Shown here: positions 19,647 through 42,329 of the stretch, piece by piece
Layout: each line of letters begins with the position of its first letter
Numbering within the stretch: position 1 is the stretch's first letter
NCBI GenBank assembly: GCA_040881685.1
Contig: JBBECS010000015.1
Coordinates: 3,736-67,735 of the forward strand
Origin: Acidimicrobiia bacterium
GTDB taxonomy: Bacteria > Actinomycetota > Acidimicrobiia > IMCC26256 > PALSA-555
Direction of reading: 5' to 3'
DNA: 64,000 bases
Position numbers and translations under genes: made by a program
The notes under the pieces: generated by a model
Seen by the model: the letters and a program-made list of their open reading frames with translations, nothing else
The model's database searches: none
Told to the model about the DNA's origin: nothing

Positions 19647-19700
19647 GCAGGCGAGCGCCCGGAGGCCCGCCGGGTATCCCGGCGGCGAGCGAGCGCGACC
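19647..19700 (+). repeat. structured repeat copy A
   Basis: GCAGGCGAGCGCCC..CGCCGGG-TAT-CCCGGCG-GCGAGCGAGCGCGACC, with the hairpin at 19668-19684. It lies 40 nt upstream of the next gene start. Confidence 0.7.
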
Positions 19701-19739
19701 AGCAAAGGGACGTCGAGAAGATTTCGAGAACGCGTTACC

Positions 19740-20120
19740 GTGCCGCGCGCCATGGTGAAGGTGTCGCGGCCGCGCTTCGAGGAGCTGGTTGCCGACGCGC
19801 TCGACGGGATCCCGCGGGAGATCTGGCTCGAGATGGAGAACGTTGCCGTGATCGTGGAGGACTGGCCGCGACCGGATCAGGTTGCGACGCCCGGCGGCAC
19901 GTTGCTCGGTCTCTACGAGGGTGTCCCCATGACCAAACGGAGCCCGCTCGGGTACAACGGCGCGATGCCGGACCGGATCACCATCTTTCGCGGGCCACTG
20001 TGTGCGCGCGCACGAGACGAAGACGACCTCGCCGCCCAGGTCCGTGTCACCGTGCTGCACGAGGTTGGGCACTACTTCGGGATGAGCGACGCGCGTCTGC
20101 GCGAGCTCGGGTGGGCTTGA
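19740..20120 (+). CDS. small zinc metallopeptidase family protein (Zincin_1/DUF1025-like)
   Basis: HExxH-type motif VLHEVGHYFGM near the C-terminus. The size and N-terminus (FEELVADALDGIP..VAVIVED) are typical of the family. The start is GTG 19740 or ATG 19752. Confidence 0.8.
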   Translation: MPRAMVKVSRPRFEELVADALDGIPREIWLEMENVAVIVEDWPRPDQVATPGGTLLGLYEGVPMTKRSPLGYNGAMPDRITIFRGPLCARARDEDDLAAQVRVTVLHEVGHYFGMSDARLRELGWA

Positions 20121-20129
20121 GGGAGCGCT

Positions 20130-21431
20130 GTGGCTGACCGGTGGCGCAACTGGGCCCGAAATCAGGAGTGCCGACCCGAGGCGGTCGAGCACCCAGCCTC
20201 CGAGCTCGAGGTGGTCGAGGCGCTGAGTCGCGCTCGGGCTGCAGGTCAGGCCGTGAAGGTCGTGGGCGCTGGCCACTCGTTCACCGATGCCGCGTGCACC
20301 GATGGCCGCTTGCTCTCGCTCGAGCACCTCGATCGCGTGGTGGGGGTCGACGAGGAGGCTGAGACCATCACGGTCGAGGCCGGCATGAGCATCAGCCGGC
20401 TCAACCGGGAGCTCGCCGCGCGGGGTCTCGCGCTCCCGAACCTGGGCGACATCGACAAGCAGTCCATCGCTGGCGCCATCGCAACCGGGACGCACGGAAC
20501 GGGCGGCGGGTTCGGTGCACTCGCCACGTTCGTGAGCGCGATGGAGCTCGTGACGGCTGACGGCGAGGTGCTGCGCTGCTCGGCTTCAGAAGAGCAAGAA
20601 GTGCTGCATTGCGCGCGTGTTGGCCTTGGTGCGCTCGGTGTGATCACCAAGGTGACGCTCCAAGGCGTCCCTGCATTCAACCTCCACCACATCGAGCAGC
20701 CGCGCCCCCTGGCGAGCGTGCTCGCGGAGCTCGAGGAGGCAGTCGCCGCCAACGACTACTTCGAGTTCTACTGGCTGCCTCACACTGATTCTTGCGCGAC
20801 GATCGCCAACAACCGGACCGACGAACCGGTACACGAGAAGAGCGCCTACAAGCGGTGGCGCGCGGAGGTGTTCTTCCCGAACGTGTTCTTCGGCGCGCTC
20901 GTCGCGGCCGGCAAGGTCGCACCGACGCGCATCCCGAAGCTCGCGGAGGTCGTGGCTGGGAACCTCGGCCGCACGGAGCTGGTGAATCGCAGCGACCGCA
21001 TCTTCATCAGCACGCGGCTCATCCGGTTCGTGGAGATGGAGTACTCGATCCCTCGCGACCATGCCGTCGAGGCAGTGCTCGCGATTCGGGACCTCATCGA
21101 AGACGAGGACCTGCTCGTCTCGTTCCCGATCGAGGTTCGCTTCGTCGCCGCCGACGATGTGCCGCTCAGCATGGCAAACGGTCGCGAGTCGTGCTTCATC
21201 GCGGTGCACATGGCGCGCGGTGTGGCGTTCGATGAGTACTTCCGGGGCGTCGAGCGGATCATGACGGGTTTTCGCGGGCGGCCACACTGGGGGAAGCTGC
21301 ATTTCCAGAGCGCGGCGGAGCTCGGGCCGCGCTACCCGGAGTGGGACCGGTTCCTCACGTGCCGCGCGCGCCTCGATCCCGATGGTCGATTCGCCAATGC
21401 GTATCTGGACCGGGTCCTCGGTCCGGTCTAG
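20130..21431 (+). CDS. FAD-linked oxidase, D-arabinono-1,4-lactone / L-gulonolactone oxidase-like
   Basis: WRNWARNQECRPEAVEHPASELEVVEAL...VKVVGAGHSFT is the FAD_binding_4 region. The C-terminal ALO-type region reads GRPHWGKLH. Confidence 0.85.
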   Translation: MADRWRNWARNQECRPEAVEHPASELEVVEALSRARAAGQAVKVVGAGHSFTDAACTDGRLLSLEHLDRVVGVDEEAETITVEAGMSISRLNRELAARGLALPNLGDIDKQSIAGAIATGTHGTGGGFGALATFVSAMELVTADGEVLRCSASEEQEVLHCARVGLGALGVITKVTLQGVPAFNLHHIEQPRPLASVLAELEEAVAANDYFEFYWLPHTDSCATIANNRTDEPVHEKSAYKRWRAEVFFPNVFFGALVAAGKVAPTRIPKLAEVVAGNLGRTELVNRSDRIFISTRLIRFVEMEYSIPRDHAVEAVLAIRDLIEDEDLLVSFPIEVRFVAADDVPLSMANGRESCFIAVHMARGVAFDEYFRGVERIMTGFRGRPHWGKLHFQSAAELGPRYPEWDRFLTCRARLDPDGRFANAYLDRVLGPV

Positions 21432-21470
21432 AGGCGGCGGACCGCGAAGGGGGTCGGTAGAGTCCCGGCC

Positions 21471-22127
21471 ATGGCGTATCCCAAGCACCTCATCAACGAA
21501 GGCGAGTCCGTCGCCCTCGACCTCCGCCCGCACTGGTGGTTCTTCTCGAAGCACATCCTCACGGGCATCCCCCTCGTCATCGGGATCGTGCTCGTGACGC
21601 GGATCAACGACGACGACGTCAAGGATGTCCTCACCTACGTCGTCGGCGGCGCGGCGATTGTCTGGGCGCTCTGGCTCCTCGTGAAGTTCCTCGCGTGGAG
21701 CCGCACTTTCTTCGTGATCACGGACCAACGGGTGATCTTCCGCACCGGCATCCTCACGCGCCACGGCGTGGAGATCCCGCTCGAGCGGATCAACAACATC
21801 AACTTCCACCAAGGGATCTGGGAGCGGATCATCGGAGCCGGTGACCTCGAGATCCAGTCCGCCGGAGAGCAGGGCACGAGCCAGTTCTCCGACATCCGTC
21901 ACCCCGACGGCGTGCAGCAGGAGATCTACCGGCAGATGGAGGGTGACGCGAAGCGCGATGCCGGTCGCGGTGCCGATGCCATCGGCAAGGCAGTCGCCGA
22001 GGCGGTCGCGAAAGGCGGGTCGAGCATCCCCGACCAGATCGAGCAGCTCGCCAAGCTCCGCGACAAGGGCACGATCACCGAAGCGGAGTTCGAGAAGAAG
22101 AAGGCGCAGCTCCTCGACAAGATGTAG
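21471..22127 (+). CDS. bacterial PH domain (bPH_2) membrane protein with C-terminal SHOCT domain
   Basis: INEGESVALDLRPHWW is followed by two TM helices and FFVITDQRVIFRTGILTRHGVEIPLERINNI. The C-terminus IEQLAKLRDKGTITEAEFEKKKAQLL is SHOCT-like. Confidence 0.8.
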   Translation: MAYPKHLINEGESVALDLRPHWWFFSKHILTGIPLVIGIVLVTRINDDDVKDVLTYVVGGAAIVWALWLLVKFLAWSRTFFVITDQRVIFRTGILTRHGVEIPLERINNINFHQGIWERIIGAGDLEIQSAGEQGTSQFSDIRHPDGVQQEIYRQMEGDAKRDAGRGADAIGKAVAEAVAKGGSSIPDQIEQLAKLRDKGTITEAEFEKKKAQLLDKM

Positions 22128-22138
22128 TTGCGCGGGGG

Positions 22139-22678
22139 TTAGGAGCCGAGATCCACCTGGTGGATCAAGCCACGTTCCTTGCCGCCGTCTTCGATCACCG
22201 CGAGGTTGTCGACCGCCAACTCCCAGTCGAATGAGCGGTTCTCCAAGACCTGCATGATCTCGGGCAGGTGCTCACCGGCCCGCGGACCTTGAGCGAGGGT
22301 CACGTGCGGGACCCACGCATCGGGCGCGTAGTACGGCAAGCCAACACCGAATCCCGGTGTGCACCTCGCCCAGATCTGCTCGTGAAGCTCGTTGAGCTCG
22401 TCCGTGCGCGTCACCGACACGAACACGACCGGCTCGGTGCCCGTAAACACGTCGAAGCCCTTCGTCGGCACCTGGAACGGCGTCCGGTTGGCGCTCACGT
22501 CGTCGAGCTCGGGCCCCAGCGCGTCGAGGTCGTACTCATCAGCGACCACGTGGTACGAGAAGTGGATGAAGGGCTTCACGTAGCGAGGCCGCAAGCCGAA
22601 GCGTGCCTCGAGCTCCGACCAGATCGAGCGAACCTCATCGGCGTGCTCGTGGTCGATCAATGAGACGAGCGCGTTCAC
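22139..22678 (-). CDS. 2H phosphoesterase / 2'-5' RNA ligase superfamily protein
   Basis: Two HxS/T motifs are present (FIHFSY and PHVTLA) at the spacing expected for the 2H fold. The GTG start overlaps the galK stop (GTGA). Confidence 0.7.
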   Translation of the reverse strand: MNALVSLIDHEHADEVRSIWSELEARFGLRPRYVKPFIHFSYHVVADEYDLDALGPELDDVSANRTPFQVPTKGFDVFTGTEPVVFVSVTRTDELNELHEQIWARCTPGFGVGLPYYAPDAWVPHVTLAQGPRAGEHLPEIMQVLENRSFDWELAVDNLAVIEDGGKERGLIHQVDLGS

Positions 22679-23745
22679 GGGTCGAGGCTACGCCGCGCGG
22701 CCGCCGAGGCGCGGGCAACGAACGCGCTGGGTTGGAGTCCAGTGCCCTTCTGGTAGCGCTCGACCGTTCGCGCGAGCACGTTGTCGGCGCGGTTTCGCTG
22801 GCACAGCGCCACGACGCAGCCGCCGAAGCCGGCACCGGTGAGCCGGGCGCCGTACGCCCCGTCGTCGACCAGCAGCTCGACGAGCAGATCGAGCTCTGGA
22901 GTCGACACCTCGAAGTCGTCGCGCAAGCTCGCATGGCTGGCCAGGAGGATTGGCCCCAGCGAATTGACGTCGCCGGACCGAAGCGCGTCGGCGAACGCGA
23001 CCACGCGAGTGTTCTCGGTGACCACGTGGCGCGCCCGCGGATCGTCGCGCACCTGCTCGAGCGTCGCGTCGCGGAGGGTCTTGACGCCGAGGTCAGTCGC
23101 GGCGCGCTCGCAGGCAGCGCGTCGCTCTCCGTACTCACTCCTGGCGAGGGTTCGCGGCAACCCGGAGTGCACGACGAGGACCGCGAGCTGCGCAGGGAGC
23201 GGGATCGGCTCGACGTCAAGGCTCCGACAGTCGATGAGAAGCGCGTGACCTAACTCGCCGAACAACGACGCGAGCTGATCCATGAGCCCGCCAGGCACGC
23301 CCGTGGCCCTCACCTCGGCGTCGAGTGCGGCACGGGCCGCGTCGCGCCGGTCGAACTCGAGGCCACCGGCGTCCGCGAGGCCGAGCGTCAGGGCGACCGC
23401 GAGTGCTGAGCTCGACGAGAGCCCAGATCCGGCGGGCACGGTCGACGACACCGAGAGCTCCAGGCCCGGAAGACGTGCGCCACGCTCCGTGACGACCTGG
23501 ACCGCTCCGGCCACGAAGCGGCCCCACGCGGGCTCGATCGTGCTCGGCTCGTCGTGGCCGTCGGCCGCCACGTCGAGCACACCGTCGACGTCGAGCGACT
23601 GCGCGCGGACACGGTCTCCCGGGACGGTCTCGACGCTGAGCACACAGACGCGGTCGATCGCCATCGGGAGCACGAACCCCTCGCAGTAATCCGTATGGTC
23701 GCCGATCAGGTTCACGCGCCCCGGCGCGCGCCACTTCGTGCTCAT
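22675..23745 (-). CDS. galK: galactokinase
   Basis: MSTKWRAPGRVNLIGDHTDYCEGFVLPMAID is the galactokinase signature, and the GHMP motif is PAGSGLSSSSALAVA. I chose the start at ATG 23745 within ORF 22675..23949. Confidence 0.9.
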   Translation of the reverse strand: MSTKWRAPGRVNLIGDHTDYCEGFVLPMAIDRVCVLSVETVPGDRVRAQSLDVDGVLDVAADGHDEPSTIEPAWGRFVAGAVQVVTERGARLPGLELSVSSTVPAGSGLSSSSALAVALTLGLADAGGLEFDRRDAARAALDAEVRATGVPGGLMDQLASLFGELGHALLIDCRSLDVEPIPLPAQLAVLVVHSGLPRTLARSEYGERRAACERAATDLGVKTLRDATLEQVRDDPRARHVVTENTRVVAFADALRSGDVNSLGPILLASHASLRDDFEVSTPELDLLVELLVDDGAYGARLTGAGFGGCVVALCQRNRADNVLARTVERYQKGTGLQPSAFVARASAAARRSLDP

Positions 23746-23761
23746 GGTGCATACTCGCGCC

Positions 23762-24616
23762 ATGCAGAGGATCAAGAACTCCTGGGAGCTCGGCAAGATC
23801 TCATGGTCGGTGCTCAAGTCGGACCGAACGCTCACGTGGTTCCCCGTCCTCTCGGCGGTCGCGGCGCTAATCATCATCGGCGTGTTCGGTGGGCTCGTCG
23901 CGGCAACCGGGGTCGACTCGCGCGATGGCGGCGACAGCCTCGAGGGCATCGCCTACGTCTTCATCTTCGTGGGCTACATCGCGCTCGCGTTCGCCACCAC
24001 ATATTTCATGGGCGCGTTGGTGCACGCCGCGAACGAGCGGCTCGATGGGCGCGAGTCGAACTTCGGCGCGTCGATGAGCGCAGCGTCAGCCAAGATCCAT
24101 CGGATCCTCCCGTGGGCTGTCCTGTCGGCCACGGTGTCCGTCGTGCTCCAAGCCATCGAAGAGCGCCTCGGGTGGTTCGGAGTCTTGATCGCGCGGCTGC
24201 TCGGTGCCGCGTGGGCGGTGGTCACGTTCCTCACCGTTCCGGTGATCATGTTGGAGGATCTGGGACCGATCAGCGCGCTCAAGCGGTCGGGTCAGCTCCT
24301 CAAGAAGTCGTGGGGTGAGAACCTCGCCGCGCAGGCCGGCTTCGGGCTTCTCGGCATCGTGGCGATGCTTCCCGGCCTGATCGTGCTGGGCCTCGGCATC
24401 GCCTCGGGCAGCACCGTGGTCGCAATTGCGCTCGGAATCCCTGCCGTGGCGTGGCTGGTGGCCGTGATGGTCGTGATCTCGGCGATGAGCGGCATCTTCC
24501 GCACCGCGCTCTACCGCTTCGCGGTGGACGGCACCGCGCCTCCTGCCTTCGCAGACGCCGACCTCGGCAACGCGTTCGGTGAGAAGCGCCAGCGCGGCGG
24601 CGGCTGGCTGAACTAG
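23762..24616 (+). CDS. multi-pass membrane protein (DUF6159-like)
   Basis: MQRIKNSWELGKISWSVLKSDRTLTWFPVLS is followed by about 6 hydrophobic helices. The family assignment is from memory of similar N-termini. Confidence 0.65.
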   Translation: MQRIKNSWELGKISWSVLKSDRTLTWFPVLSAVAALIIIGVFGGLVAATGVDSRDGGDSLEGIAYVFIFVGYIALAFATTYFMGALVHAANERLDGRESNFGASMSAASAKIHRILPWAVLSATVSVVLQAIEERLGWFGVLIARLLGAAWAVVTFLTVPVIMLEDLGPISALKRSGQLLKKSWGENLAAQAGFGLLGIVAMLPGLIVLGLGIASGSTVVAIALGIPAVAWLVAVMVVISAMSGIFRTALYRFAVDGTAPPAFADADLGNAFGEKRQRGGGWLN

Positions 24617-24623
24617 CCCGTCG

Positions 24624-25544
24624 TCAGGCGAGCGCGGGCAGCACCTCGGCGGCGAAGCGGTCGAGGCCGTCGAGGTCGAACGGCGCCCGCAGGGCGATCA
24701 TCACCCAATCGGCACCCGCGTCGGCGTACTCGCCGAGCCGGTCCACGATCTCGTTCGTGCTGCCGGTCAGTGCGCTCGGACGGATCCAGTCGGTCATCCC
24801 GCCGAAGCGCTCGCCCAACTCGTCGTCGCTCCAGGCGAGCGTGAGGTTCACCGACTTCTCGATGCTTGCGGGGTCTGTGCCGACGTTCTCGCAGTGGTCG
24901 GTGAGCACCTGCACCTTGTGCCGGTACACGTCGGGGGGGATGAATGGCACGTTCCACCCATCGGCGTGCTGTGCCGCGATGCGCAGCGTCACCTTCTCGC
25001 CGCCGCCTCCGATCCAGAGCGGGAGCCGATCCTGCCGCGGCTTCGGGTCGCAGCGCGCGTCGCGCAACTCGTAGAACTCGCCGGAGAAGGTCGCCGACTC
25101 CTCAGTGAGGAGCAAGCGCATCACCTGGATGGCCTCGTCGGTGCGCCGCAGCCGCACGGGCACGGGTTCGAACTCCATCCCGTACGCGGCGAACTCACCC
25201 TGGTGCCAGCCCCCACCGAGACCCATGGTGATGCGACCGTCCGAGAGGTGGTCAAGTGTTACTGCCGCGTTCGCGAGCACCGCAGGGTGCCGGTACGCGA
25301 CGCAGTACACCAGGCTGCCGCAACGCACGTGCGCCGTCTCGAGCGCGAGTGCCGCGTGCGCCGCGACTGCCTCGAAGCACACCGAACCCGACGATGTTCC
25401 CTCCGCCGTCACGGTTGCGTCGGCCGCATAGAAGTGGTCCCAGATCGAGACCCACCCGAACCCCCGCGCGTCAGCGAGTCGCCACAACGCGCGCAGCTCG
25501 TCGACCGTCGTGTTCTGGAGGCCTGTGTGCACGCCGAACCTCAT
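24624..25544 (-). CDS. LLM-class (luciferase-like) F420-dependent oxidoreductase
   Basis: MRFGVHTGLQNTTVDELRALWRLADARGFGWVSIWDHF matches the LLM TIM-barrel pattern along its length. Confidence 0.8.
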   Translation of the reverse strand: MRFGVHTGLQNTTVDELRALWRLADARGFGWVSIWDHFYAADATVTAEGTSSGSVCFEAVAAHAALALETAHVRCGSLVYCVAYRHPAVLANAAVTLDHLSDGRITMGLGGGWHQGEFAAYGMEFEPVPVRLRRTDEAIQVMRLLLTEESATFSGEFYELRDARCDPKPRQDRLPLWIGGGGEKVTLRIAAQHADGWNVPFIPPDVYRHKVQVLTDHCENVGTDPASIEKSVNLTLAWSDDELGERFGGMTDWIRPSALTGSTNEIVDRLGEYADAGADWVMIALRAPFDLDGLDRFAAEVLPALA

Positions 25545-25574
25545 GCCGGGAGGCTAGAGGTACCGTTGGACGTG

Positions 25575-26393: not shown

Positions 26394-26460
26394 CTCCGAA
26401 TGAGCTGTGGGTTCTTCCTCTCGTCATACAGAAGAAATGGGTGCGCCCAGGGGTCGGCTT

Positions 26461-26729: not shown

Positions 26730-27134
26730 ATGAGTGTCGTGCGCATCAATGCCATCAGTGTCCCCACCGAACGCGCCGAGGAGCTCGAACGCAGGTTCGC
26801 CGCTCGGGCGGGGGAGGTGTCGGGTTCGCCCGGGTTCGAGGCTTTCGAGCTCCTGCGGCCCAGCGACGAGCGCGATGTGTACCTCGTGTACACCCGCTGG
26901 AGGTCCGAGGAGGACTTCAACGCGTGGGTGAGCAGCCCGGCATTCGAGCACGGTCACCGAGCGCACGCGACCGAGGGGCCGGTCACCAGCCACAGCGAGC
27001 TGTGGTCCTTCGAGGTGATCCAGCACGAGGAGGCGAGCGACCGTGGGACGGGTACCCCGGACCGCAGCGAGCCGGGGCCAGAGCGGCCCGGCGCGAAGCG
27101 CCGAGAGCGGAATCAGGAGTCGGCCGCGGGCTGA
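26730..27134 (+). CDS. heme-degrading monooxygenase-like ABM domain protein (MhuD/IsdG-like) with a repeat-derived C-terminal tail
   Basis: MSVVRINAISVP..ELERRFA.RAG.V..SPGF..FELLRP......YLVYTRW.SEEDF.AW is close to my memory of MhuD. The last roughly 30 residues (..PDRSEPGPERPGAKRRERNQESAAG) are encoded by repeat copy E. Confidence 0.8.
   Translation: MSVVRINAISVPTERAEELERRFAARAGEVSGSPGFEAFELLRPSDERDVYLVYTRWRSEEDFNAWVSSPAFEHGHRAHATEGPVTSHSELWSFEVIQHEEASDRGTGTPDRSEPGPERPGAKRRERNQESAAG
27044..27110 (+). repeat. structured repeat copy E (inside the 3' end of the mhuD-like ORF)
   Basis: GGGACGGG-TAC-CCCGGACC, then GCAGCGAGCCGGGGCCAGAGCGG, CGGCGC-GAA-GCGCCG (27088-27102) and GAGAGCGGA. Positions 27080-27109 are identical to 115-144. 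Confidence 0.75.
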
Positions 27135-27158
27135 GGGTGCACCCGCCCGCCTGCACCC

Positions 27159-27521: not shown

Positions 27522-27534
27522 TCGTGAGGTTTCG

Positions 27535-29648: not shown

Positions 29649-29693
29649 AGAGAGCGACCGCGGCGCACGTATCGTGCGTCGCAGTGAGCGACC
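29649..29693 (+). repeat. structured repeat copy M (direct repeat - hairpin - direct repeat)
   Basis: AGAGCGACC, then GCGGCGCACG-TAT-CGTGCGTCGC (29660-29682, one G-T pair), then AGTGAGCGACC. It lies between the convergent PRTase and pckG ends. Confidence 0.75.
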
Positions 29694-32331: not shown

Positions 32332-32377
32332 AGCGAGCGACCGCGAGTCGGGTATCCCGGCTCGCAGCGAGCGACCC
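32332..32377 (+). repeat. structured repeat copy B (direct repeat - hairpin - direct repeat)
   Basis: AGCGAGCGACC, then GCGAGTCGGG-TAT-CCCGGCTCGC (32343-32365, one T-G pair), then AGCGAGCGACCC. It lies in the divergent rpmB/DAK2 intergenic region. Confidence 0.8.
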
Positions 32378-34153: not shown

Positions 34154-36358
34154 GTGAATGAGCGCGTCGCGGCGGGGATCACCTTGCGCGAGCTGCGAGA
34201 CAAGCCTGCGTCCGACCTGCGCGCGGTGGGTTCGAAGTTGGCGACCCGGCTCGAGGCGATGGAACTCATGAGCGTGCTCGACCTGCTCGAGCACTACCCG
34301 CGTCGGTATCACGACCGCACCAAGGTCCAGGACATCGCCGAGCTGGCGATCGGCGAGGAGGCGACGGTCACGGGTGAGGTGAAGAAGGTCTCGGTGCGTC
34401 GACCGCGCAACCGCCGCCCCTTGGTGGAGATGGAGGTGTTCGACGGCACCTCCTACCTGCGGCTCACGTTCTTCAACCAGGAGTACCGGGCGAAAATCAC
34501 GGAAGGCACCGAGATCTCGGTCTTCGGCAAGGTCGACCTGTATCGCGGCCGGCGTCAGATGGTGAACCCCGCGCTCGACGTGCTCGGCAATCCCGGCGAG
34601 CAGACGACCGGCGTCCTGCTCCCCGTGTACCCCCAGTCGGGGAAGGCGGGTGTGCAGACGTGGGAGCTCCGGAAGGTTGCCGCGGAGCTGCTCCAGCGCG
34701 TTCGTGCTCGCGGGTTCGCCGACCCGGTTGATGTGGGCGTGCTTCGAGCGCGCGGCCTCGTCGATCGAACGACCGCCTATTCGGCGATCCACCGCCCTGA
34801 GACCTTGGGCGAAGTCGAGGTCGCCAAGGCGCGCCTCACGTTCGACGAGTTCCTCCGCATGCAGGTGGGCCTGGTCGCGCGCAAGCGTGCGCTCGAGCGC
34901 GATCGAAGTGGCATCGAGCATCAGGTCGACGGTCCGCTCGTCCCGGCGTTCCACGCCGCGCTCCCGTTCCCGTTGACTGACGACCAGCAGCGCGCGATCG
35001 CCGAGATCGGCCAGGACATGGCCGCGCCTGCGCCGATGCACCGGCTGCTCCAAGGCGAGGTGGGATCGGGCAAGACCGTGGTGGCGCTCACCGCGCTCCT
35101 GATGGCCGTGCAAGGCGGCTACCAAGGCGCGTTCATGGCGCCGACGGAGGTGCTCGCCGAGCAGCACGACCTCACGTTGCGATCGCTGCTCGACGGCCTG
35201 CACGTCCCGGCCGAGGGCAGCCTGCTGGGCGACCGGCCCATCGGCGTCGCCCTGCTCACCAACCGCACCGCGGCCGCCGAACGGCGCCGCATCGCCGACG
35301 GCTTGCGCTCGGGAGAGATCGACATCCTCGTCGGCACGCACGCGCTGATCTACGAGGGGGTCGAGTTCGCGCGCCTCGGCGTAGCGGTGGTCGACGAGCA
35401 GCACCGGTTCGGCGTCGAGCAACGCGACCTGCTGCGCGGAAAAGGTCCGCGGCGAGCGTCCCAAGGGGCGGCGCCGGGTATCCCGGCGCCTAGCGAGCCT
35501 GCCGAATACGGGGGATCCGACGTGCTCGTGATGACAGCGACGCCGATCCCACGGACGGCGGCGATGCTCATCTACGGCGACCTGGACCGCTCCGAGCTGC
35601 GCAGTCTCCCGGCCGGCCGTTCGCCGATCACCACCGAGATCGTGGGCCCGATGCCGATGGAGCGCACGCCGGTCTACGAGCGCCTGCGCGCCGAGGTCGA
35701 CGCCGGCCGCCAGGCCTACGTCGTGTGCCCGCTCGTGGAGGGTTCCGAGAAGCTCGAGGCCAAAGCGGCGACCGAGGAACACGCGCGGCTCGCGGCCGAA
35801 GAGCTTGCAGGGTTGCGCCTCGGCCTGCTGCACGGGCAGATGCCGTCGCGAGACAAGGAAGCGATGATGACGCGCTTCCGAGCGCACGAGATCGATGTGC
35901 TCGTCGCCACCACCGTGGTCGAGGTCGGAGTTGATGTGCCGAACGCGACCGTGATGATCGTCGAAGATGCTGATCGCTTCGGGCTCCTCCAGCTCCACCA
36001 GCTGCGCGGTCGCATCGGTCGCGGCGCGCACCGTTCGTGGTGCTATCTGCTCGCCGATCCGGTCACGAACGAAGCCAAGGCGCGACTCCAGGCGATGGTC
36101 AACTCCTCCGACGGCTTCGAGCTCGCGGAGCGCGACCTCGAGATCCGCGGCGAGGGCGCGGTGTTCGGCGAGCGGCAGTCGGGCTGGAGCGACCTCAAGC
36201 TCGGTCGCCTCCCGCGCGACGAGCCGATCGTGATGGAGGCCCGCGCCGTGGCCGAGTCCATCCTCGGCGCCGACCCAGAGCTCGAACGACATCCGCAGCT
36301 GCGTGAAGAGGTCGAGGATCTGCTCGGCGACGCGGTCGAGTTCCTCTTCAAGAGCTGA
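34154..36358 (+). CDS. recG: ATP-dependent DNA helicase RecG (carrying an in-frame repeat insertion)
   Basis: Wedge/OB N-terminus, then LLQGEVGSGKTVVA, VVDEQHRFGV, LVMTATPIPRT, HGQMPSRDKE and LHQLRGRIGRG. About 18-20 extra residues lie between the DEQH box and MTATPIPRT. Confidence 0.95.
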   Translation: MNERVAAGITLRELRDKPASDLRAVGSKLATRLEAMELMSVLDLLEHYPRRYHDRTKVQDIAELAIGEEATVTGEVKKVSVRRPRNRRPLVEMEVFDGTSYLRLTFFNQEYRAKITEGTEISVFGKVDLYRGRRQMVNPALDVLGNPGEQTTGVLLPVYPQSGKAGVQTWELRKVAAELLQRVRARGFADPVDVGVLRARGLVDRTTAYSAIHRPETLGEVEVAKARLTFDEFLRMQVGLVARKRALERDRSGIEHQVDGPLVPAFHAALPFPLTDDQQRAIAEIGQDMAAPAPMHRLLQGEVGSGKTVVALTALLMAVQGGYQGAFMAPTEVLAEQHDLTLRSLLDGLHVPAEGSLLGDRPIGVALLTNRTAAAERRRIADGLRSGEIDILVGTHALIYEGVEFARLGVAVVDEQHRFGVEQRDLLRGKGPRRASQGAAPGIPAPSEPAEYGGSDVLVMTATPIPRTAAMLIYGDLDRSELRSLPAGRSPITTEIVGPMPMERTPVYERLRAEVDAGRQAYVVCPLVEGSEKLEAKAATEEHARLAAEELAGLRLGLLHGQMPSRDKEAMMTRFRAHEIDVLVATTVVEVGVDVPNATVMIVEDADRFGLLQLHQLRGRIGRGAHRSWCYLLADPVTNEAKARLQAMVNSSDGFELAERDLEIRGEGAVFGERQSGWSDLKLGRLPRDEPIVMEARAVAESILGADPELERHPQLREEVEDLLGDAVEFLFKS
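35449..35503 (+). repeat. structured repeat copy C, in frame inside recG
   Basis: GCGGCGAGCGTCCCAAGG, then GGCGCCGGG-TAT-CCCGGCGCC (35470-35490, perfect 9-bp stem), then TAGCGAGCCTGCC. It is translated as RRASQGAAPGIPAPSEPA. Confidence 0.75.
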
Positions 36359-36918: not shown

Positions 36919-36939
36919 CCCGACGAAGGAGGGATCGGC

Positions 36940-37437
36940 GTGGCAACGGCGCTCTGCCCGGGCTCCTTCGATCCCGTCACCAACGGGCACCTCGACATCA
37001 TCGAACGCACGGCGCGGCACTTCGACACGGTGATCGTCGCGGTCATCCGCAACCCGCAGAAGTCCCAGTCGCTCTTCACCCTCGAAGAGCGCCAGGAGAT
37101 GCTGCACGAGGTGACCGCCCACCTGTCCAACATCAAGATCGAGTTCTTCAAGGGGTTGCTCGTCGAGTTCGCCAAGGACCACGGCGCGTCGGCCATCGTC
37201 AAGGGGCTGCGGGCCATCTCCGACTTCGACTACGAGCTCCAGATGGCGCAGATGAACCAGAGCCTGTCGGGCATCGACACCTTCTTCATCTCCACGAGCC
37301 CGCAGTACTCGTTCCTCTCGTCGAGCCTCGTGCGCGAGGTGGCGAAGTTCGGTGGCGACGTGTCGAGCATGGTTCCCGCCGTCGTCGCGAAGCGGCTCGA
37401 CGCCCGCTTCGGGGGGCCCAGCCGCGACAAGGCATGA
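36940..37437 (+). CDS. coaD: phosphopantetheine adenylyltransferase
   Basis: ALCPGSFDPVTNGHLDIIERTA and GLRAISDFDYELQMAQMN. Confidence 0.95.
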   Translation: MATALCPGSFDPVTNGHLDIIERTARHFDTVIVAVIRNPQKSQSLFTLEERQEMLHEVTAHLSNIKIEFFKGLLVEFAKDHGASAIVKGLRAISDFDYELQMAQMNQSLSGIDTFFISTSPQYSFLSSSLVREVAKFGGDVSSMVPAVVAKRLDARFGGPSRDKA

Positions 37438-37523
37438 GCCGAGCATTCGCGCCGCAGGTACCCTGCGGCGCACGAGGCGGGGCCTCAGCGGCCCGGCGCG
37501 AAGCGCCAGGAGCGGGAAGGTGA
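37434..37523 (+). repeat. structured repeat copy F, also a 29-codon intercistronic mini-ORF
   Basis: The ATG at 37434 overlaps the coaD TGA (ATGA). The ORF MSRAFAPQVPCGARGGASAARREAPGAGR ends at TGA 37521-23, which overlaps GTG 37520 of the next gene (GTGA). Hairpin 1 is GCGCCGCAGG-TAC-CCTGCGGCGC (37449-71) and hairpin 2 is CGGCGC-GAA-GCGCC (37494-37507). Confidence 0.75.
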
Positions 37524-38071
37524 GTGACCCGGGCCTCGGCCTCCCCCGATCATCGATCGCCGGTGCGCGTGGCCTCGAAGACCTCCTGTACGACCTGCGG
37601 GAGCTGATCGAGACGGCGCGCATGATGCCGATGTCGGCGTCTGTGCTCGTCAACCGCGACGAAGCGCTCACGCTCATGGAAGACGTGGTGGCGTCGCTCC
37701 CTGGTGAGCTGCGCGAAGCCCGCTTCTTGCTCAAGGAGCGCGACGAGTTCCTCGCCGAGGCCCAGCGCGAGGCCGCGGCCCTCATCGACTCGGCGCGGGT
37801 GCAAGCCGAGCGCATGGTCGAGCGGACCGAGATCTCGCGCGAGGCCCACCGCACGGCCGAGGAGATCGTCGCCAACGCCGAAGCCGACGCGCGTCGGTTG
37901 CGCCACGAAGCCGAGGACTACATCGACGCGCGGCTCGCGGCCTTCGAGGCTGGCCTCGAGCGGACGCTCGCGACGATCCGCAAGGGGCGCCAGCGTCTCC
38001 AGGTACCGCTCCCCGCGCCACACAGCGAGGACGACGAGCTCGCTCGCGATGTCTTCGACCAAGACACCTAG
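37520..38071 (+). CDS. coiled-coil protein (DivIVA/ATP-synthase-B-like; actinobacterial Rv2927c-type position)
   Basis: LEDLLYDLRELIETARMMPMSASVLVNRDEALTLMEDVV..LP.ELREARFLLKERDEF is followed by long heptad-like helices. The GTG start at 37520 is inferred, because the open frame runs further upstream through the repeat. Confidence 0.7.
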   Translation: MSDPGLGLPRSSIAGARGLEDLLYDLRELIETARMMPMSASVLVNRDEALTLMEDVVASLPGELREARFLLKERDEFLAEAQREAAALIDSARVQAERMVERTEISREAHRTAEEIVANAEADARRLRHEAEDYIDARLAAFEAGLERTLATIRKGRQRLQVPLPAPHSEDDELARDVFDQDT

Positions 38072-38120
38072 ATGGTCGCGCTCGGCCCGTTGAGCCCGTT
38101 CGGCTGCTCCGACGGTAACT

Positions 38121-38155
38121 GGGAAAATCTGGAAATCGGCGGTCGCTGCTAGGAT
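38121..38155 (+). promoter_or_regulatory. AT-rich patch / candidate promoter upstream of yceD-rpmF-plsX
   Basis: GGGAAAATCTGGAAATCGGCGGTCGCTGCTAGGAT contains TAGGAT as a possible -10 and an AT-rich stretch upstream. There is no experimental support. Confidence 0.25.
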
Positions 38156-38166
38156 CAGATGCCCAC

Positions 38167-38232
38167 CTCGAGCGGGCTCGGTGGAGCCGTCGGACCACCG
38201 ACGGAGGCGTTGCCTCGGCTCCCCCGCTCGAG
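38167..38232 (+). other. 66-nt nested stem-loop in the yceD leader
   Basis: CTCGAGCGGG (38167-76) pairs with CCCGCTCGAG (38223-32) and encloses CCGTCGG-ACCA-CCGACGG. It ends 36 nt before the yceD ATG. Confidence 0.55.
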
Positions 38233-38267
38233 CCACCTACGCACGGCCGCGGGCCGGCCGTCAGGCC

Positions 38268-38732
38268 ATGTCCGGATTCCGCATCGATGTCGCCGACCTG
38301 CTGTCGCACCCCGGTTCGCGGCGCGAGCTCACCCTGGCCGAGCCCGTCGCCGACTTGGTCGGCTCGGCGGCGCGCGTCGAGGGGCCGGTGCGGCTGGATC
38401 TCGCGCTCGAGCGCATCTCCGAGGGCATCGTGGCTCGCGGTATGGTGACCGCCCATTGGCAGGCCGAGTGCAGCCTCTGCCTCGGCGACGTCGAGCGCAG
38501 TCTCGAAGCGCACGTCGACGAGCTCTTCGAGCCCACCCCGGTCGAGGGCGAGACCTACCCGATCCAGGGCCACGAGATCGACCTGGAGCAGCTCGTGCGC
38601 GACGTGGTGCTGCTCGATCTGCCGCTCGCGCCGCATTGCGAACCGGAGTGTGTGGGGGCGTTGCCCGAGATCAACGACGACGACGACCCCACCGATCCCC
38701 GCTGGGCCGCGCTCTCCGAGCTCGAGCTCTGA
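38268..38732 (+). CDS. yceD: YceD/DUF177 family protein
   Basis: MSGFRIDVADLL...G.V.LDL.LERI.EGIVARG.V...W..EC.LCL....R.....V.ELF plus C-terminal cysteines. It has the conserved position upstream of rpmF. Confidence 0.85.
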   Translation: MSGFRIDVADLLSHPGSRRELTLAEPVADLVGSAARVEGPVRLDLALERISEGIVARGMVTAHWQAECSLCLGDVERSLEAHVDELFEPTPVEGETYPIQGHEIDLEQLVRDVVLLDLPLAPHCEPECVGALPEINDDDDPTDPRWAALSELEL

Positions 38733-38772
38733 CACCCGCCGCGAAGACCCGACCCGAGGAGCACACCACGCC

Positions 38773-38952
38773 ATGGCCGTCCCGAAGCGCAAGATCCCGA
38801 GGGCCAAGACCCATTCGCGCCGGTCTGCGAACCGCAAGCTCGACGCGCCCGCGCGCTCCGTCTGCCCGAACTGTCAGACGGTGAAGCAGCCGCACATCGT
38901 GTGCCCGAACTGTGGTTGGTACAAGGGCCGCCAGGCCGTCGAGGTGCAGTAG
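38773..38952 (+). CDS. rpmF: 50S ribosomal protein L32
   Basis: MAVPKRKIPRAKTHSRRSANRKL...CPNCQ...PHIVCPNCGWYKGR. Confidence 0.9.
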   Translation: MAVPKRKIPRAKTHSRRSANRKLDAPARSVCPNCQTVKQPHIVCPNCGWYKGRQAVEVQ

Positions 38953-38956
38953 CTCC

Positions 38957-39952
38957 GTGTCCACCTGCACGGTCGCCGTCGACGCGATGGGTGGCGACCG
39001 AGCCCCGGGCGAGATCGTGGCGGGCGCGTTGCGCGGCGTCGACGAGCTGGGCATCCGAGTGCTGCTCGTCGGCCGCGAAGAAGAGGTCACGCCACTGCTG
39101 TCGAACCCGGCGCCGGCGGGTGTGTCGATCCTCGACGCGCGCGACGTGATCGCGATGGACGACGAACCAGCCGGTGCGGTGCGCAAGAAGAAGAACTCGT
39201 CTCTCGTGCGCTGCGCGCAGGCGGTGCGCGACGGGTTGGCCGACGCGATGGTGAGCGCAGGCAACACCGGCGCCGCGATGGCCGCCGCATTGCTCCGCAT
39301 GGGGCGGGTGAAGGGCGTCTCCCGTCCTGCGATCGCGGTGGTGCTGCCGGTGCCCGGGCACGGCCACCAGATCCTCGTCGACGCCGGTGCCACGACGGAC
39401 GTCTCGCCTGAATGGCTGGTTCAGTTCGCGCTCATGGGCCGTGAATACGCACGGGTGCGGCTCGGTGTGGAGGAACCGACCGTAGGTCTCCTCTCGATCG
39501 GCGAGGAGCCGAGCAAGGGTGACGAGCTGCGCAAGCAGGTGCACCCGCTTCTCTCGGCGATGCCCGGCTTCGTCGGCAACGTAGAGGGCCGCGACTTCAT
39601 GCACGCCGGGACTGACGTGGTGGTCACCGACGGGTTCACCGGCAACGTCGCGCTCAAGAGCCTGGAAGGCGCGCTGCGCTCGCTCGCGAGCCTCGTATTC
39701 GGTGTGTTCGAGTCGTCGCCGGCGGCGAAGGCAGCCGGTGACGTGGTCATGCCGATGTTGCTCGAGGCGGCCGAGGCGTACGACCCCGATCTCACGGGTG
39801 GCGCGGTCCTGCTCGGCGTGAACGGGGTCTGCGTGATCTCGCACGGCGCCTCGTCGGAGACCGCGATCGTCAAGGCGCTCGGTGTCGCGGCCGATTGCGT
39901 TTCCGCAGACGTTCCGCAGCTCGTGCGCAAGGCGGTGGCGAATGCCGGCTGA
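38957..39952 (+). CDS. plsX: phosphate acyltransferase PlsX
   Basis: VAVDAMGGDRAPGEIVAGA, SAGNTGAAMAAA and TDGFTGNVALKSLEG. The GTG start at 38957 is inferred. Confidence 0.9.
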   Translation: MSTCTVAVDAMGGDRAPGEIVAGALRGVDELGIRVLLVGREEEVTPLLSNPAPAGVSILDARDVIAMDDEPAGAVRKKKNSSLVRCAQAVRDGLADAMVSAGNTGAAMAAALLRMGRVKGVSRPAIAVVLPVPGHGHQILVDAGATTDVSPEWLVQFALMGREYARVRLGVEEPTVGLLSIGEEPSKGDELRKQVHPLLSAMPGFVGNVEGRDFMHAGTDVVVTDGFTGNVALKSLEGALRSLASLVFGVFESSPAAKAAGDVVMPMLLEAAEAYDPDLTGGAVLLGVNGVCVISHGASSETAIVKALGVAADCVSADVPQLVRKAVANAG

Positions 39953-40250
39953 GACGCACCTCGAGCGTGGCCCGCTTGGTTCCGAGGAAGTGCTCGCGCT
40001 GATCCGCGATCAGCTTTCCGAGATCCTCGAGATCGACGAGTCGCTCGTCGTGCGCGAGGCGCGCTTCGCCGAGGATCTCGCGGCCGACTCGCTCGCGCTC
40101 ATCGAGTTGGTGGAAGCGCTCGAGCAGGAGCTGGGCGAGCGAACGGTGGGGTTCAGCGTGGACGACGAGGACCTCGCCGACCTCGCGACCGTGGGCGACG
40201 CGGTGGACTACATCGTTGCTCGGCTCGAGACAGGGAGCGCGGCGCCATGA
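39942..40250 (+). CDS. acpP: acyl carrier protein
   Basis: FAEDLAADSLALIELVEALEQELG carries the phosphopantetheine Ser in DSL. The plsX-acp-rnc-smc-ftsY order is the classic one. It has a roughly 20-aa N-terminal extension and overlaps the plsX end by 11 nt. Confidence 0.8.
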   Translation: MPAETHLERGPLGSEEVLALIRDQLSEILEIDESLVVREARFAEDLAADSLALIELVEALEQELGERTVGFSVDDEDLADLATVGDAVDYIVARLETGSAAP

Positions 40251-40996
40251 CGCGCGAGGACGAGCTCGTCCGGCTCGAAGGCGCCCTCGGCTACGAGTTC
40301 GAGGCGCGAGCCCATCTCGAAGCCGCGCTCGTCCATCGCTCGTACTGCGCTGAGCATGCAGAGGCGAGCCCGAACGAGCGGCTCGAGTTCCTCGGCGATG
40401 CCGTGCTCGGCCTGAGTGTCACCGACCACATCTTCGAGGTGTACCCGGAGCTTCCCGAAGGTGAGCTCACGAAGATTCGAGCGTCCGTGGTCAATGCCGA
40501 GGTGCTGGCGATCGTCGCCGCCGAGCTCGATCTCGGCAGCGCGTTGCTCTTGGCCAAGGGCGAAGACGCCTCGGGCGGACGTGCGAAGCCGTCGATCCTC
40601 GCCGACACCATGGAGGCCGTCATCGCCGCCGTGTACCTGGACGGTGGCCGCGAGTCTGCCGACCGCGTCGTGCTGGGGCTGCTCGGCGAGCGAATTCAAG
40701 AGAGTGCCGAAGGCCCTGGTCAGCGCGACGTGAAGACGCGTTTGCAAGAGCTCACCACGCAGCTCCTTGATGTTGTCCCGCGCTACGTCGTCACCGGCGA
40801 TGGGCCTGACCACTCCAGGAACTTCTACGCCAAGGTGATGTTGCGCCGAGACTGCTACGGCGAGGGCGAAGGTCGCACCAAGAAGGAAGCCGAGAAGGCC
40901 GCGGCGCGCGCCGCATGGCAGCGACTGCAAGCGGAACAGTCCGGGGAGATGCCCGCGCTGGCGACCAGCGCAGCGAGAGAAGGAAACGATGCCTGA
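40247..40996 (+). CDS. rnc: ribonuclease III
   Basis: NERLEFLGDAVLGL is the RNase III signature. The C-terminal dsRBD reads DVKTRLQEL...GPDHSRNFYA....GEGEGRTKKEAEKAAA. Confidence 0.95.
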   Translation: MTREDELVRLEGALGYEFEARAHLEAALVHRSYCAEHAEASPNERLEFLGDAVLGLSVTDHIFEVYPELPEGELTKIRASVVNAEVLAIVAAELDLGSALLLAKGEDASGGRAKPSILADTMEAVIAAVYLDGGRESADRVVLGLLGERIQESAEGPGQRDVKTRLQELTTQLLDVVPRYVVTGDGPDHSRNFYAKVMLRRDCYGEGEGRTKKEAEKAAARAAWQRLQAEQSGEMPALATSAAREGNDA

Positions 40997-41825
40997 GCTA
41001 CCGGAAGTCGAGGTCGTTCGACGAGACCTCGAGCGAGAGATCATCGGCAAGCGCGTGAAGGCCGTCGAGGTGGACGGCATGCGCTCCGTTCGCCGCCATC
41101 ACAACCGGAAGCAGTTCATCAGCCGGCTCGAGGGCAAGAGGTTCATCAGCGTCGAGCGGCGCGGCAAGTACCTCCTGTGCCGCATCGAGGGGAACGACGT
41201 GCTCGTCATCCATCTCGGCATGTCGGGCCAGCTGCTCCGGGCAAAGACCGGGCGAGACGCCAAGGCCAAGCACACCCATGTGACGATCACGTTCACCCAG
41301 GGTGGCCAACTGCGCTTCATCGACCCGCGCACGTTCGGTGAGATGTTCGTGACCGAGGTCGACGCGCTCGCGCGGGTCAGCGAGCTGTCCCACCTCGGGA
41401 TCGACCCGCTCGAGAACGCGATGTCCTGGGAGCAGTTCGGCAGCCTCATCACGAACAAGCACGCCAAGCTCAAGCCGCTGCTCATGGACCAGAAGTTCCT
41501 CGCCGGCATCGGCAACATCTACAGCGACGAGATCCTCTGGGGAGCGGGCTTGCGTTGGGATCGCATGAGCGACTCACTCTCCGCGCAGGAGGTGCGCCGC
41601 CTCTACCGGGCGATGGTCGAGACGCTCCAGGACGCCGTGAAGTACCGGGGGTCGTCACTCGCCGACATGCAGTACGTCGACCTGCACGGCAAGCCCGGCG
41701 AGTACCAGCTCCACCACAAGGTGTACGCGCACGACGGCGACTCGTGCCGTCGCTGTCGCCACGCGATCGTGCGCGAGCGCTACGGCGGTCGCTCCACCTA
41801 CTACTGCGAGGCATGCCAGGTCTAG
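40989..41825 (+). CDS. mutM: formamidopyrimidine-DNA glycosylase
   Basis: MPELPEVEVVRRDL at the N-terminus, and a C-terminal zinc finger CRRCRHAIVRERYGGRSTYYCEACQ. Confidence 0.95.
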   Translation: MPELPEVEVVRRDLEREIIGKRVKAVEVDGMRSVRRHHNRKQFISRLEGKRFISVERRGKYLLCRIEGNDVLVIHLGMSGQLLRAKTGRDAKAKHTHVTITFTQGGQLRFIDPRTFGEMFVTEVDALARVSELSHLGIDPLENAMSWEQFGSLITNKHAKLKPLLMDQKFLAGIGNIYSDEILWGAGLRWDRMSDSLSAQEVRRLYRAMVETLQDAVKYRGSSLADMQYVDLHGKPGEYQLHHKVYAHDGDSCRRCRHAIVRERYGGRSTYYCEACQV

Positions 41826-41831
41826 AGCCTT

Positions 41832-41879
41832 GGTCGCACTCGCTCGGCGCCCGGGTTACCCGGTCGCCGCCCTTCGGGC
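41832..41879 (-). repeat. structured repeat copy K (only clear inverted copy)
   Basis: The minus strand reads GCCC-GAA-GGGC, GGCGACCGGG-TAA-CCCGGGCGCC (one A/G mismatch), GAGCGAGTGCGACC. It lies between mutM and acyP. Confidence 0.65.
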
Positions 41880-41890
41880 CGGTCGCCGCG

Positions 41891-42172
41891 TTGACTGAGC
41901 CGGATCGTGTTCGCCGGCACGTCTGGGTCGATGGGCGGGTGCAGAACGTGTGGTTCCGTGACGCGTGCCGACGCGAGGCGTTGGCGCAGGGCGTCGACGG
42001 CTGGGTCCAGAACCTCGGCGACGGCCGTGTGGAGGCCGTGTTCGAGGGGCCACCCGAGGCCGTCGCCGTGCTCGTCGCCTGGTGCCAGGACGGGCCTCCG
42101 CGTGCGCAGGTCAGCCGGGTCGAGGTCCGCGACGAGCTCTTGGGAGCCGAGGACGGGTTCGCGGTGCGCTGA
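41891..42172 (+). CDS. acyP: acylphosphatase
   Basis: VWVDGRVQNVWFRDACRREALAQGVDGWVQNLGDGRVEAVFEGP is the acylphosphatase signature. The TTG start at 41891 is inferred. Confidence 0.8.
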   Translation: MTEPDRVRRHVWVDGRVQNVWFRDACRREALAQGVDGWVQNLGDGRVEAVFEGPPEAVAVLVAWCQDGPPRAQVSRVEVRDELLGAEDGFAVR

Positions 42173-42246
42173 CCTGCCCTGACGCCGGGTGCTCGGCATT
42201 CACGAAGCCCCTCGGTACGATCCGCTCGTGAACGCGATCGCGAGCC

Positions 42247-42329
42247 AGAGCGAGCGCTCGCGTCGCAGGTACCCTGCGGCGCAGCGAGCGGGGCCCGAGC
42301 GGCCCGGCCCGCAGGGCCGAGAGCGGGAC
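42247..42329 (+). repeat. structured repeat copy G, abutting the smc start
   Basis: AGAGCGAGCGCTC, GCGTCGCAGG-TAC-CCTGCGGCGC (42260-82, one T-G pair), AGCGAGCGGGGCCCGAGCGG, CGGCCC-GCA-GGGCCG (42305-19), AGAGCGGGAC. An open frame through it ends at TGA 42330-32, overlapping the smc ATG at 42332. Confidence 0.8.

Follow-up and report, generated by a model that had tools for sequence, protein, structure and literature searches.

What are the short hairpins that recur along a 64,000-nt stretch of contig JBBECS010000015.1 from an Acidimicrobiia bacterium: leaders that control particular genes, or copies of a repeat that is dispersed over the genome? The preliminary description of this stretch (the window, in whose numbering all positions are given) had read them as strand-specific structures in gene leaders. 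On balance, we think it probable that the hairpins form the cores of short, modular, non-coding dispersed repeats of Acidimicrobiia, a family that is apparently undescribed and resembles repetitive extragenic palindromes (REPs) and mycobacterial interspersed repetitive units (MIRUs). Copies are gained and lost between related genomes. They occupy gene junctions, after the upstream stop codon and before the downstream start codon, with occasional copies inside open reading frames (ORFs) and some tandem arrays. Both stems are maintained by compensatory substitutions, and the single-stranded flanks and the loop stay constant.

The window has a G+C content of 67-71% and is matched by a contig of the Acidimicrobiia metagenome-assembled genome (MAG) GCA_040879835.1. 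A profile hidden Markov model (HMM) and a covariance model run with its filters off returned the same eight copies of one modular repeat family, all on the + strand and named A, M, B, C, D, E, F and G, at a density of 8 copies per 64 kb (~1 per 8 kb). Module 1 comprises, often behind a stop codon, G(G)C, GAGCGACC, a 10-bp stem with a TAY triloop (hairpin 1, 23 nt) and AGCGAGC. The optional module 2 consists of GGGGCCnGAGCGGCC, a 6-7-bp stem with a 3-nt loop (hairpin 2) and AGAGCGGGAA, followed a few nucleotides later by a start codon; it is present in four of the eight copies (D, E, F and G), which constitute the long form. The whole unit measures about 45-95 nt. The copies in the window are the following.

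55..148, + strand: copy D, long form; covariance model 32 bits, E=2.8e-4
19651..19696, + strand: copy A, short form; covariance model E=1e-3
27035..27119, + strand: copy E, long form; HMM and covariance model
29650..29691, + strand: copy M, short form; covariance model 56.7 bits
32330..32377, + strand: copy B, short form; covariance model 65.8 bits
35452..35500, + strand: copy C, inside recG (34154-36358); HMM and covariance model
37439..37520, + strand: copy F, long form; HMM and covariance model
42250..42330, + strand: copy G, long form; covariance model 58.9 bits

Every hairpin quoted in the preliminary description is present at its place, with 0 matches expected in shuffled sequence; the range given there for the family, 19668-42319, holds the quoted copies except copy D, which lies outside it. 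Hairpin 1 is perfectly paired in F (37449-37471) and carries a single imperfection in M (29660-29682, G·T at pair 4), B (32343-32365, 23 nt, T·G at pair 6) and G (42260-42282, T·G at pair 4). Copy E has GTGGGACGGG-TAC-CCCGGACCGC (27043-27065) with one T·G plus tandem G·A/A·G, and copy D has GCGGCGCAGG-CAC-CGTGCGCCGC (66-88) with either a G·G at pair 9 or an enlarged 7-nt loop. The hairpin of copy A, CGCCGGG-TAT-CCCGGCG (19668-19684), is identical to hairpin 1 of copy C (35470-35490), and a 7-nt spacer separates the stem of A from its left flank GAGCGCCC. Hairpin 2 reads CGGCGC-GAA-GCGCCG in D (123-137) and CGGCCC-GCA-GGGCCG in G (42305-42319); it lies at 27089-27103 in E and at 37494-37508 in F, where the outermost pair is C·A, and is missing from A, M, B and C. 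Around hairpin 1 of copy B, the direct repeat AGCGAGCGACC stands on both sides (32332-32342 and 32366-32376). In copy D, an outer Watson-Crick helix, GGCTACC (55-61) with GGTAGCC (90-96), takes the place of the GCGAGC/GCGAGC flanks.

Outside the window, the family was retrieved with a search pattern that fixes the flanks and the loop only and leaves the stem free (GAGCGACC-N10-TAY-N10-AGCGAGC). The scan of public species-representative genomes yielded 112 loci, and metagenome contigs contributed at least 120 further loci. An HMM pass over all retrieved loci, with duplicates removed, gave 227 non-redundant copies from the matches listed, and the counts below refer to these unless another sample is named. 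Hairpin-forming matches occur in at least 27 species-level MAGs labelled Acidimicrobiia or Actinomycetota. Pattern matches from other phyla, Bacteroidota and Proteobacteria among them, form no palindromes and provide an internal negative control; the count of paired positions per pattern match is bimodal, at 1-6 versus 7-10. Hairpins found without any constraint on the flanks carry GAGCGACC/AGCGAGC in 131 of 177 cases and CTACC/GGTAG, the flanks of the D subfamily, in 2 of 177.

The preliminary description had held that stem sequences vary while pairing and the 3-nt loop are kept, and the larger sample bears this out. In hairpin 1, 2036 of 2270 stem cells are Watson-Crick pairs, distributed over 111 distinct hairpins and 23 distinct perfectly paired stems. 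Among 146 distinct cores, retrieved without regard to the stem, 91.1% of cells are paired compared with 73.0% after shuffling, and none of 500 shuffles reached the observed value; sliding the partner by 1-3 columns reduces pairing to 35-48%. Pairs 4, 5, 6 and 8 alternate freely among G-C, C-G and A-T. At pair 5, for example, 104 copies have G-C, 98 have C-G, and six have G·G or C·C. For hairpin 1, RNAalifold, a check suggested in the preliminary description, predicts the same structure. Hairpin 2 behaves similarly: its 56 copies show 20 distinct 5′ arms, and Watson-Crick pairs occupy 198 of 227 cells. The loop of hairpin 1 is TAT in 140 copies, TAC in 86 and TCC in one, counts that are partly constrained because the seed pattern demanded TAY; a relaxed expression without the loop constraint returned TAT in 65, TAC in 44 and two others among its well-paired matches.

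Both-sided changes affect nine of the ten pairs of hairpin 1 (230 cells), a covariation count that lineage effects inflate, as the compared copies are paralogous. The covariation survives this caveat because orthologous copies in the smc leader also show a double change: between copy G and its counterpart in locus L236, pair 8 turns from A-T to G-C. Such compensatory variation among paralogous repeats is strong evidence for a folded single strand and, taken alone, is no evidence for a dedicated regulatory RNA.

To assign copies to strands, we used codon-position GC periodicity in the 300 nt to either side of a copy as the indicator of the coding strand, a procedure that was correct for 42 of 44 called genes. 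Between co-directional genes, 118 copies are sense and 9 antisense (93% sense, p=2e-25), and copies that the search pattern had not picked show 13 sense to 2 antisense. A further 19 copies lie between convergent and 21 between divergent genes. A stop triplet stands at -6 or -5 before GAGCGACC in 72 of 217 copies (33%), against a background of 1.7% per position, and candidate downstream ORF starts cluster 5-12 nt after AGCGAGC in the short form and 40-45 nt after it in the long form. The strand specificity proposed in the preliminary description therefore holds, mainly because of the 118:9 sense orientation, to which the stop/start positions add; the wobble count is not its main evidence.

The sites in the window illustrate this range of contexts. 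Copy F fills the interval from the coaD stop (37435-37437) to the GTG start (37521) of a 183-aa hypothetical gene, and copy G ends at CTGATG, the smc start (42332). Copy A lies upstream of a + strand gene at 19740-20120, copy D in a divergent intergenic region, likewise upstream of a + strand gene, and copy B between the divergent rpmB (-) and a DAK2/FakA-like gene (+), with an orthologous copy in the relative L239. Copy M separates the convergent genes for a phosphoribosyltransferase (+) and PEPCK (-). Single copies such as those in L115 and L013 read, by hand translation, as ATGA...ATGA mini-ORFs. A depletion of stops on the sense strand, which would be a sign of translation through the element, was not observed: the cores contain 25 sense stop triplets versus 1 antisense.

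The wobble pairs, on which the strand had initially been argued, are less uniform. The claim that all imperfections are G-T on the + strand stands for the cited copies M, B and G and fails for D, E and F of the same window, where hairpin 1 of E (tandem G·A/A·G), hairpin 1 of D (G·G) and hairpin 2 of F (C·A) depart from it; three G·U pairs are in any case too few for assigning a strand. The count of G-U versus C-A pairs that had been proposed as a test gives a modest G·T excess in hairpin 1, with 44 G·T versus 23 A·C as read along the element (p=0.014, binomial), or 37:21 when each distinct hairpin is counted once (p=0.048), and the reverse in hairpin 2 (2 G·T versus 10 A·C, most of the latter being the outermost C·A seen in copy F). 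Another 167 mismatches of hairpin 1 are of other types, and 116 of these are the tandem G·A/A·G at pairs 3-4, found in 58 copies. The unpaired flanks provide a symmetric baseline (G>A 15/1362, C>T 13/1135), and orthologous copies in near relatives of the window have imperfections of the G·T type only. As evidence for the strand, the wobble asymmetry is suggestive, not decisive.

A comparison of orthologous sites reveals repeated gain and loss. The preliminary description had spoken of leaders of specific genes, namely smc and the gene after coaD. This framing does not hold: the copies are dispersed and insertion-polymorphic, are absent from the same leaders in relatives, and also occur inside ORFs, in 3′ regions and in tandem arrays. 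Two junctions of the window are empty where a relative is filled.

50246..50250, + strand: empty site, TGATG stop/start overlap upstream of trmD; filled in L081
47170..47174, + strand: empty site, TGATG junction upstream of ffh; L081 has a long-form copy

At the trmD site, L081 carries an 89-nt long-form copy, CTC-TGA-CATGAGCGAGCGACC...GCGGGAA-TGATG, so that the filled junction reads TGA-...-TGA-TG. Conversely, the site of copy F is empty in all five relatives examined (L236, L238, L240, L242 and L243), and what appears to be its left flank, GAGCATTC, is native sequence. Further sites are filled in relatives and empty in the window, and the smc-leader and rpmB-dak copies are kept in a second species (L236 and L239, respectively). 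In three species that share the gene order around recG (L240, L241 and L242), no copy is detectable over 22 kb each, which indicates sharp differences in repeat load among the lineages of the class.

Two copies are in-frame inserts within genes. Copy E, unique to the window, lies at the 3′ end of an ABM-domain gene (26730-27134), whose product has 134 aa in the window versus 103-105 aa in five related genomes; reading continues through copy E as far as a new stop, which lengthens the gene by 29 codons. Copy C forms a 63-nt in-frame insert in recG that encodes ...PRRASQGAAPGIPAPSEPAEYGG... and adds ~21 residues. This insert (about 35452-35515) is absent from the closest RecG homologues aligned (P0002-P0006 and P0009, 79-89% identity). 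Several homologues at 69-75% identity carry element-derived peptides of ~20-24 residues at the same spot, between ...LLRGKG and xEP-DVLVMTATPIPRT, and P0044 has two tandem copies there. Judging from these alignments, the spot could be a recurrent insertion hot spot, or it could mark an old insertion followed by repeated precise loss.

Copy number varies as well. Tandem arrays of 2-3 units with periods of 57, 60, 72 and 87 nt occur in L010, L015, L024, L052, L055 and L171, and orthologous sites differ in copy number, although most loci hold a single copy. Module 2 adjoins module 1 in 57 of 63 cases, and the two long-distance pairs enclose ordinary genes.

Collectively, these features are consistent with a dispersed repeat that lives within transcription units. 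Copies would be co-transcribed inside operon mRNAs, and selection on the stems would act on a folded single strand, most probably the transcript. With a stop codon at its left edge and a start codon at its right, a copy between coupled cistrons would do little harm, as proposed for MIRUs. By analogy with REP elements in enterobacterial operons, the likeliest effect on the host would be modulatory, the GC-rich hairpins acting as 3′-exonuclease barriers or processing points; copies may also act as spacers in termination-reinitiation. A dedicated regulatory switch is less likely than such a modulatory effect.

Several observations weigh against this reading. The sense bias weakens to 8:3 in a small syntenic sample taken without bias, and the frequency of the [A/G]TGA stop-start overlap at the 3′ edge (58 of 109 copies) does not clearly exceed the level expected from base composition. 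Within the window, the coding strand and the leading strand of replication are confounded. RNA would be expected to show an excess of G·U over A·C, a signature that hairpin 1 carries weakly and hairpin 2 lacks, and an antisense copy in L236 keeps its single G·T on the element strand, not on the mRNA strand. Nor is the predicted folding energy better for the sense strand (sense -28.7 versus antisense -29.8 kcal/mol); the antisense strand comes out slightly more stable under RNA and under DNA parameters, and the argument that G·U and tandem G·A pairs would favour the sense strand was dropped. Target-site duplication is inconsistent: TGA is repeated at trmD, and the sites of E, C, F and L171 reveal no consistent duplication. 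No mobilising gene was found either, as an approximate probe for the IS608 TnpA (Y1) transposase detected none in 1.67 Mb of element-bearing loci, and no cargo ORF lies between modules 1 and 2.

Some of these points are what one would expect if the hairpins were single-stranded DNA substrates of an HUH/Y1 transposase, either in the manner of REPs and REP-associated tyrosine transposases (RAYTs) or as miniature IS200/IS605-type elements. Hairpins with conserved 5′ feet would then be recognised on the lagging-strand template and inserted 3′ of a short target such as TGA, and the sense orientation would arise since only insertions after a same-strand stop codon are harmless. We doubt this explanation, the main rival, which would likewise make the feature strand-specific and keeps some plausibility because coding and leading strand are the same one in the window: by GC skew, all eight copies lie on the inferred leading strand, which corresponds to the lagging-strand template. 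It would account for a conserved structure with variable arms and conserved hairpin-foot flanks, for a long form with one hairpin near each end, for the filled trmD site with its TGA at either end and no true duplication, and for the G·T of the antisense copy lying on the element strand. The 118:9 gene orientation, however, exceeds what a gene-strand bias of 75-80% would produce, and no TGA precedes the inserts E and C, which lie within ORFs. A second end is missing from the short forms, inverted pairs of the REPIN kind are rare, and the GTAG/CTAC foot typical of REPs appears only in the D subfamily; the failure to detect a Y1 transposase or a cargo ORF, noted above, counts against it too.

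A host function would offer another account, in which the hairpin is a cis-regulatory RNA motif bound by a global RNA-binding protein or RNase that controls translation initiation or processing in many operons, and in which it is kept for that function and is not selfish. The invariant loop and single-stranded flanks around variable stems are typical of protein-RNA recognition, the 3′ edge lies at a short and fairly fixed distance from start codons, the orientation is sense, the smc-leader and rpmB-dak copies persist in a second species, and the core is conserved across the whole class. A dedicated motif of this kind is nevertheless improbable, because orthologous leaders are empty, including three relatives without a copy in 22 kb, and because copies occur inside ORFs; copies between convergent genes and in tandem arrays, and the functionally unrelated downstream genes, argue in the same direction. 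We consider it very improbable that the stems are a by-product of template switching, in which, during replication or repair, one arm of a palindrome is copied onto the other, so that a mutation in one arm soon becomes 'compensatory' and perfect pairing arises without selection. The 23 perfect stem variants, the 54 perfect copies among 124 and the scarcity of half-compensated intermediates would fit such self-correction, which should, however, have erased the tandem G·A/A·G at pairs 3-4, a stable variant retained by 58 of 227 copies in combination with several inner stems; an excess of G·T over A·C is likewise unexpected from a symmetric correction. That the stem is an inverted repeat around a fixed central TAY could also recall an operator bound, as double-stranded DNA, by a dimeric protein. 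This is scarcely credible, and here the preliminary description was right to consider a simple dimeric site unlikely: the arms are free to vary at pairs 4-6 and 8, the conserved flanks (GAGCG...) are direct and not inverted, the orientation bias is strong, and copies lie inside ORFs and between cistrons rather than at promoters.

Among known systems, the dispersed repeat that we favour is close in habit to the MIRUs. PMC12548453, citing Supply et al. 1997, describes these as units of 40-100 nt between operon genes, oriented as the flanking genes; they are placed at start codons, their edges carry a stop and a start codon, they form tandem arrays of variable copy number, and they are apparently mobile by a mechanism that is unexplained. 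With them, the repeats described here share an actinobacterial lineage, the unit size (45-95 nt), the sense orientation between co-directional genes (118 of 227 copies), the stop/start placement and tandem arrays of variable copy number. They differ in their host, Acidimicrobiia and not Mycobacterium, and the likeness concerns habit, a relationship in sequence not being expected. The present family is defined by one or two GC-rich hairpins with compensatory changes, has a modular build and occurs mostly outside arrays, as single copies. Only some of its copies display an internal mini-ORF coupled at -4, and statistics do not establish this feature.

REPs are short, GC-rich, imperfect palindromes that number hundreds per genome, lie within transcription units after stop codons, form mosaics and are thought to stabilise the upstream mRNA. 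In enterobacteria and pseudomonads they occur in both orientations, typically as inverted pairs, with a GTAG/CTAC foot and RAYT transposases. The Acidimicrobiia repeats resemble REPs and their composite forms, BIMEs and REPINs, in having a 23-nt imperfect palindrome in many copies, a modular structure and a location after stop codons. In contrast to REPs, they are 93% sense and mostly single, with an inverted pair only at the acyP-smc junction in L236 and L238; outside the D subfamily they have no GTAG/CTAC foot, the approximate probe found no RAYT in the 1.67 Mb of loci, and copies also stand directly before start codons and in frame inside ORFs.

The in-frame inserts recall the Rickettsia palindromic elements (RPEs), which are ~100-150 nt long, AT-rich and mainly intragenic, and which insert in frame and add a peptide segment. 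Copies C (recG) and E (ABM-domain gene) are likewise in-frame palindromic inserts that add peptide, but intragenic copies are a minority here, and the elements are GC-rich and far shorter. BOX elements, with their A/B/C modules, enterobacterial repetitive intergenic consensus (ERIC) sequences and Correia elements (NEMIS) form co-transcribed RNA hairpins whose presence varies by strain, and compensatory changes have been reported in the ERIC stem. The modular build, the compensatory stem changes and the variable presence are shared with the present family. These elements belong to other phyla and differ in size (127-150 nt and more). Terminal inverted repeats and a TA duplication characterise the Correia elements, and none of the three has the strict sense orientation and stop/start placement seen here.

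Palindrome-associated transposable elements (PATEs) of the IS200/IS605 type are similar in being strand-specific, in carrying a subterminal hairpin near each end (as in the long form), in the apparent lack of target duplication and in having a short conserved sequence 5′ of the left end. They differ in that no TnpA/TnpB partner was found here, the short forms carry a single hairpin, and no fixed tetra- or pentanucleotide makes up the left flank. Unlike miniature inverted-repeat transposable elements (MITEs), the ends carry direct repeats of the GAGCG type (for example AGCGAGCGACC around copy B) in place of terminal inverted repeats. Intrinsic terminators are set apart by their U run: here the sequence behind the hairpins is AGCGAGC (hairpin 1) or AGAGCGGGAA (hairpin 2), without such a run, and copies lie between cistrons. 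The kind of element is well known, and the family itself, lacking a match in Rfam, in papers or among plasmids, is apparently undescribed. Rfam gave 0 matches in the window at gathering thresholds, and its E-value mode applied to copy G returned only noise. Searches of viral contigs with module 2 and of a plasmid database with copy G found no match, and the literature on Acidimicrobiia repeats and on the core sequence held nothing relevant, matches to the core sequence being mammalian PCR primers.

The flanks offer a further structural lead. The GCGAGC...GCGAGC flanks can pair with each other through tandem G·A pairs, and in copy D and one copy elsewhere a perfect GGCTACC/GGTAGCC helix stands in their place. 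Positions -3 and +1 are associated, with G-C in 79 copies, A·G in 111 and other combinations in 24 (Fisher p=2e-35), an association that may simply mark two subfamilies; the energy model gives no reward to GCGAGC:GCGAGC pairing. One could imagine a strand-specific mobile element that homes to stop/start junctions, either as single-stranded DNA with an unrecognised HUH-type enzyme or through its own transcript, with a fold containing GCGAGC:GCGAGC helices that are closed by tandem G·A and can form on one strand only. We judge this unlikely. If true, such a homing element would be an independent and tractable counterpart of MIRUs, whose mobility, to our knowledge, has never been explained.

Even as ordinary dispersed repeats, these elements matter in practice. 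An element at gene junctions affects gene calling in MAGs of the abundant, mostly uncultured Acidimicrobiia of soil and water, and gene callers will report element-extended proteins, such as that of the ABM-domain ORF, as real. As insertion-polymorphic markers of variable copy number, the copies lend themselves to strain tracking. They also represent a second case, in another taxon, of the MIRU-like habit of living between stop and start codon in sense orientation, and a comparison with MIRUs could shed light on the way such repeats move and on whether translational coupling or mRNA stability is tuned by them.

Several minor observations accompany these results. The coaD-downstream junction of element-free relatives (TGAGCCGAGGATTCGCGCC, TGAGGCGACG, start GTGAGCGAYCC) resembles the left end of the element, TGAGGCGAGCGACC. 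This likeness (window 37435-37448, L238 and L236) hints at microhomology-guided insertion or at footprints of earlier copies. L236 (19565-19606, -) and L238 (8173-8214, -) have an extra antisense copy directly after the acylphosphatase stop, which forms an inverted pair with the sense copy before smc; the corresponding part of the window (42173-42249) has no antisense copy. At the gltB-gltD junction (10353-10375), the window has a 12-nt gap, and metagenome contig L156 has a copy of ~110 nt with an extra GAGCG-rich module upstream.

A candidate ninth copy at 37931-37971 (-; covariance model E=0.026) was rejected, as it is not a hairpin. The 8-mer AGCGAGCG alone is not enriched in the window (9 matches versus 11.5 expected), and a tRNA scan of the window found none. 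MAGs labelled 'uncultured Bifidobacteriaceae' (L015, L022, L034, L036, L039, L044, L046 and L067) carry typical Acidimicrobiia copies, which suggests that those taxonomic labels are wrong. Between recG and rsmD, L236 (12166-13682) and L240 (12293-13873) have HerA-like ATPase genes on the opposite strand; in the window, unlike in these two, recG and rsmD abut (~36358). Finally, the long-form copy in L183 contains ~70 extra hairpin-rich nucleotides inside module 2, ~80 nt downstream of the core, which may be a nested insertion or a further module.

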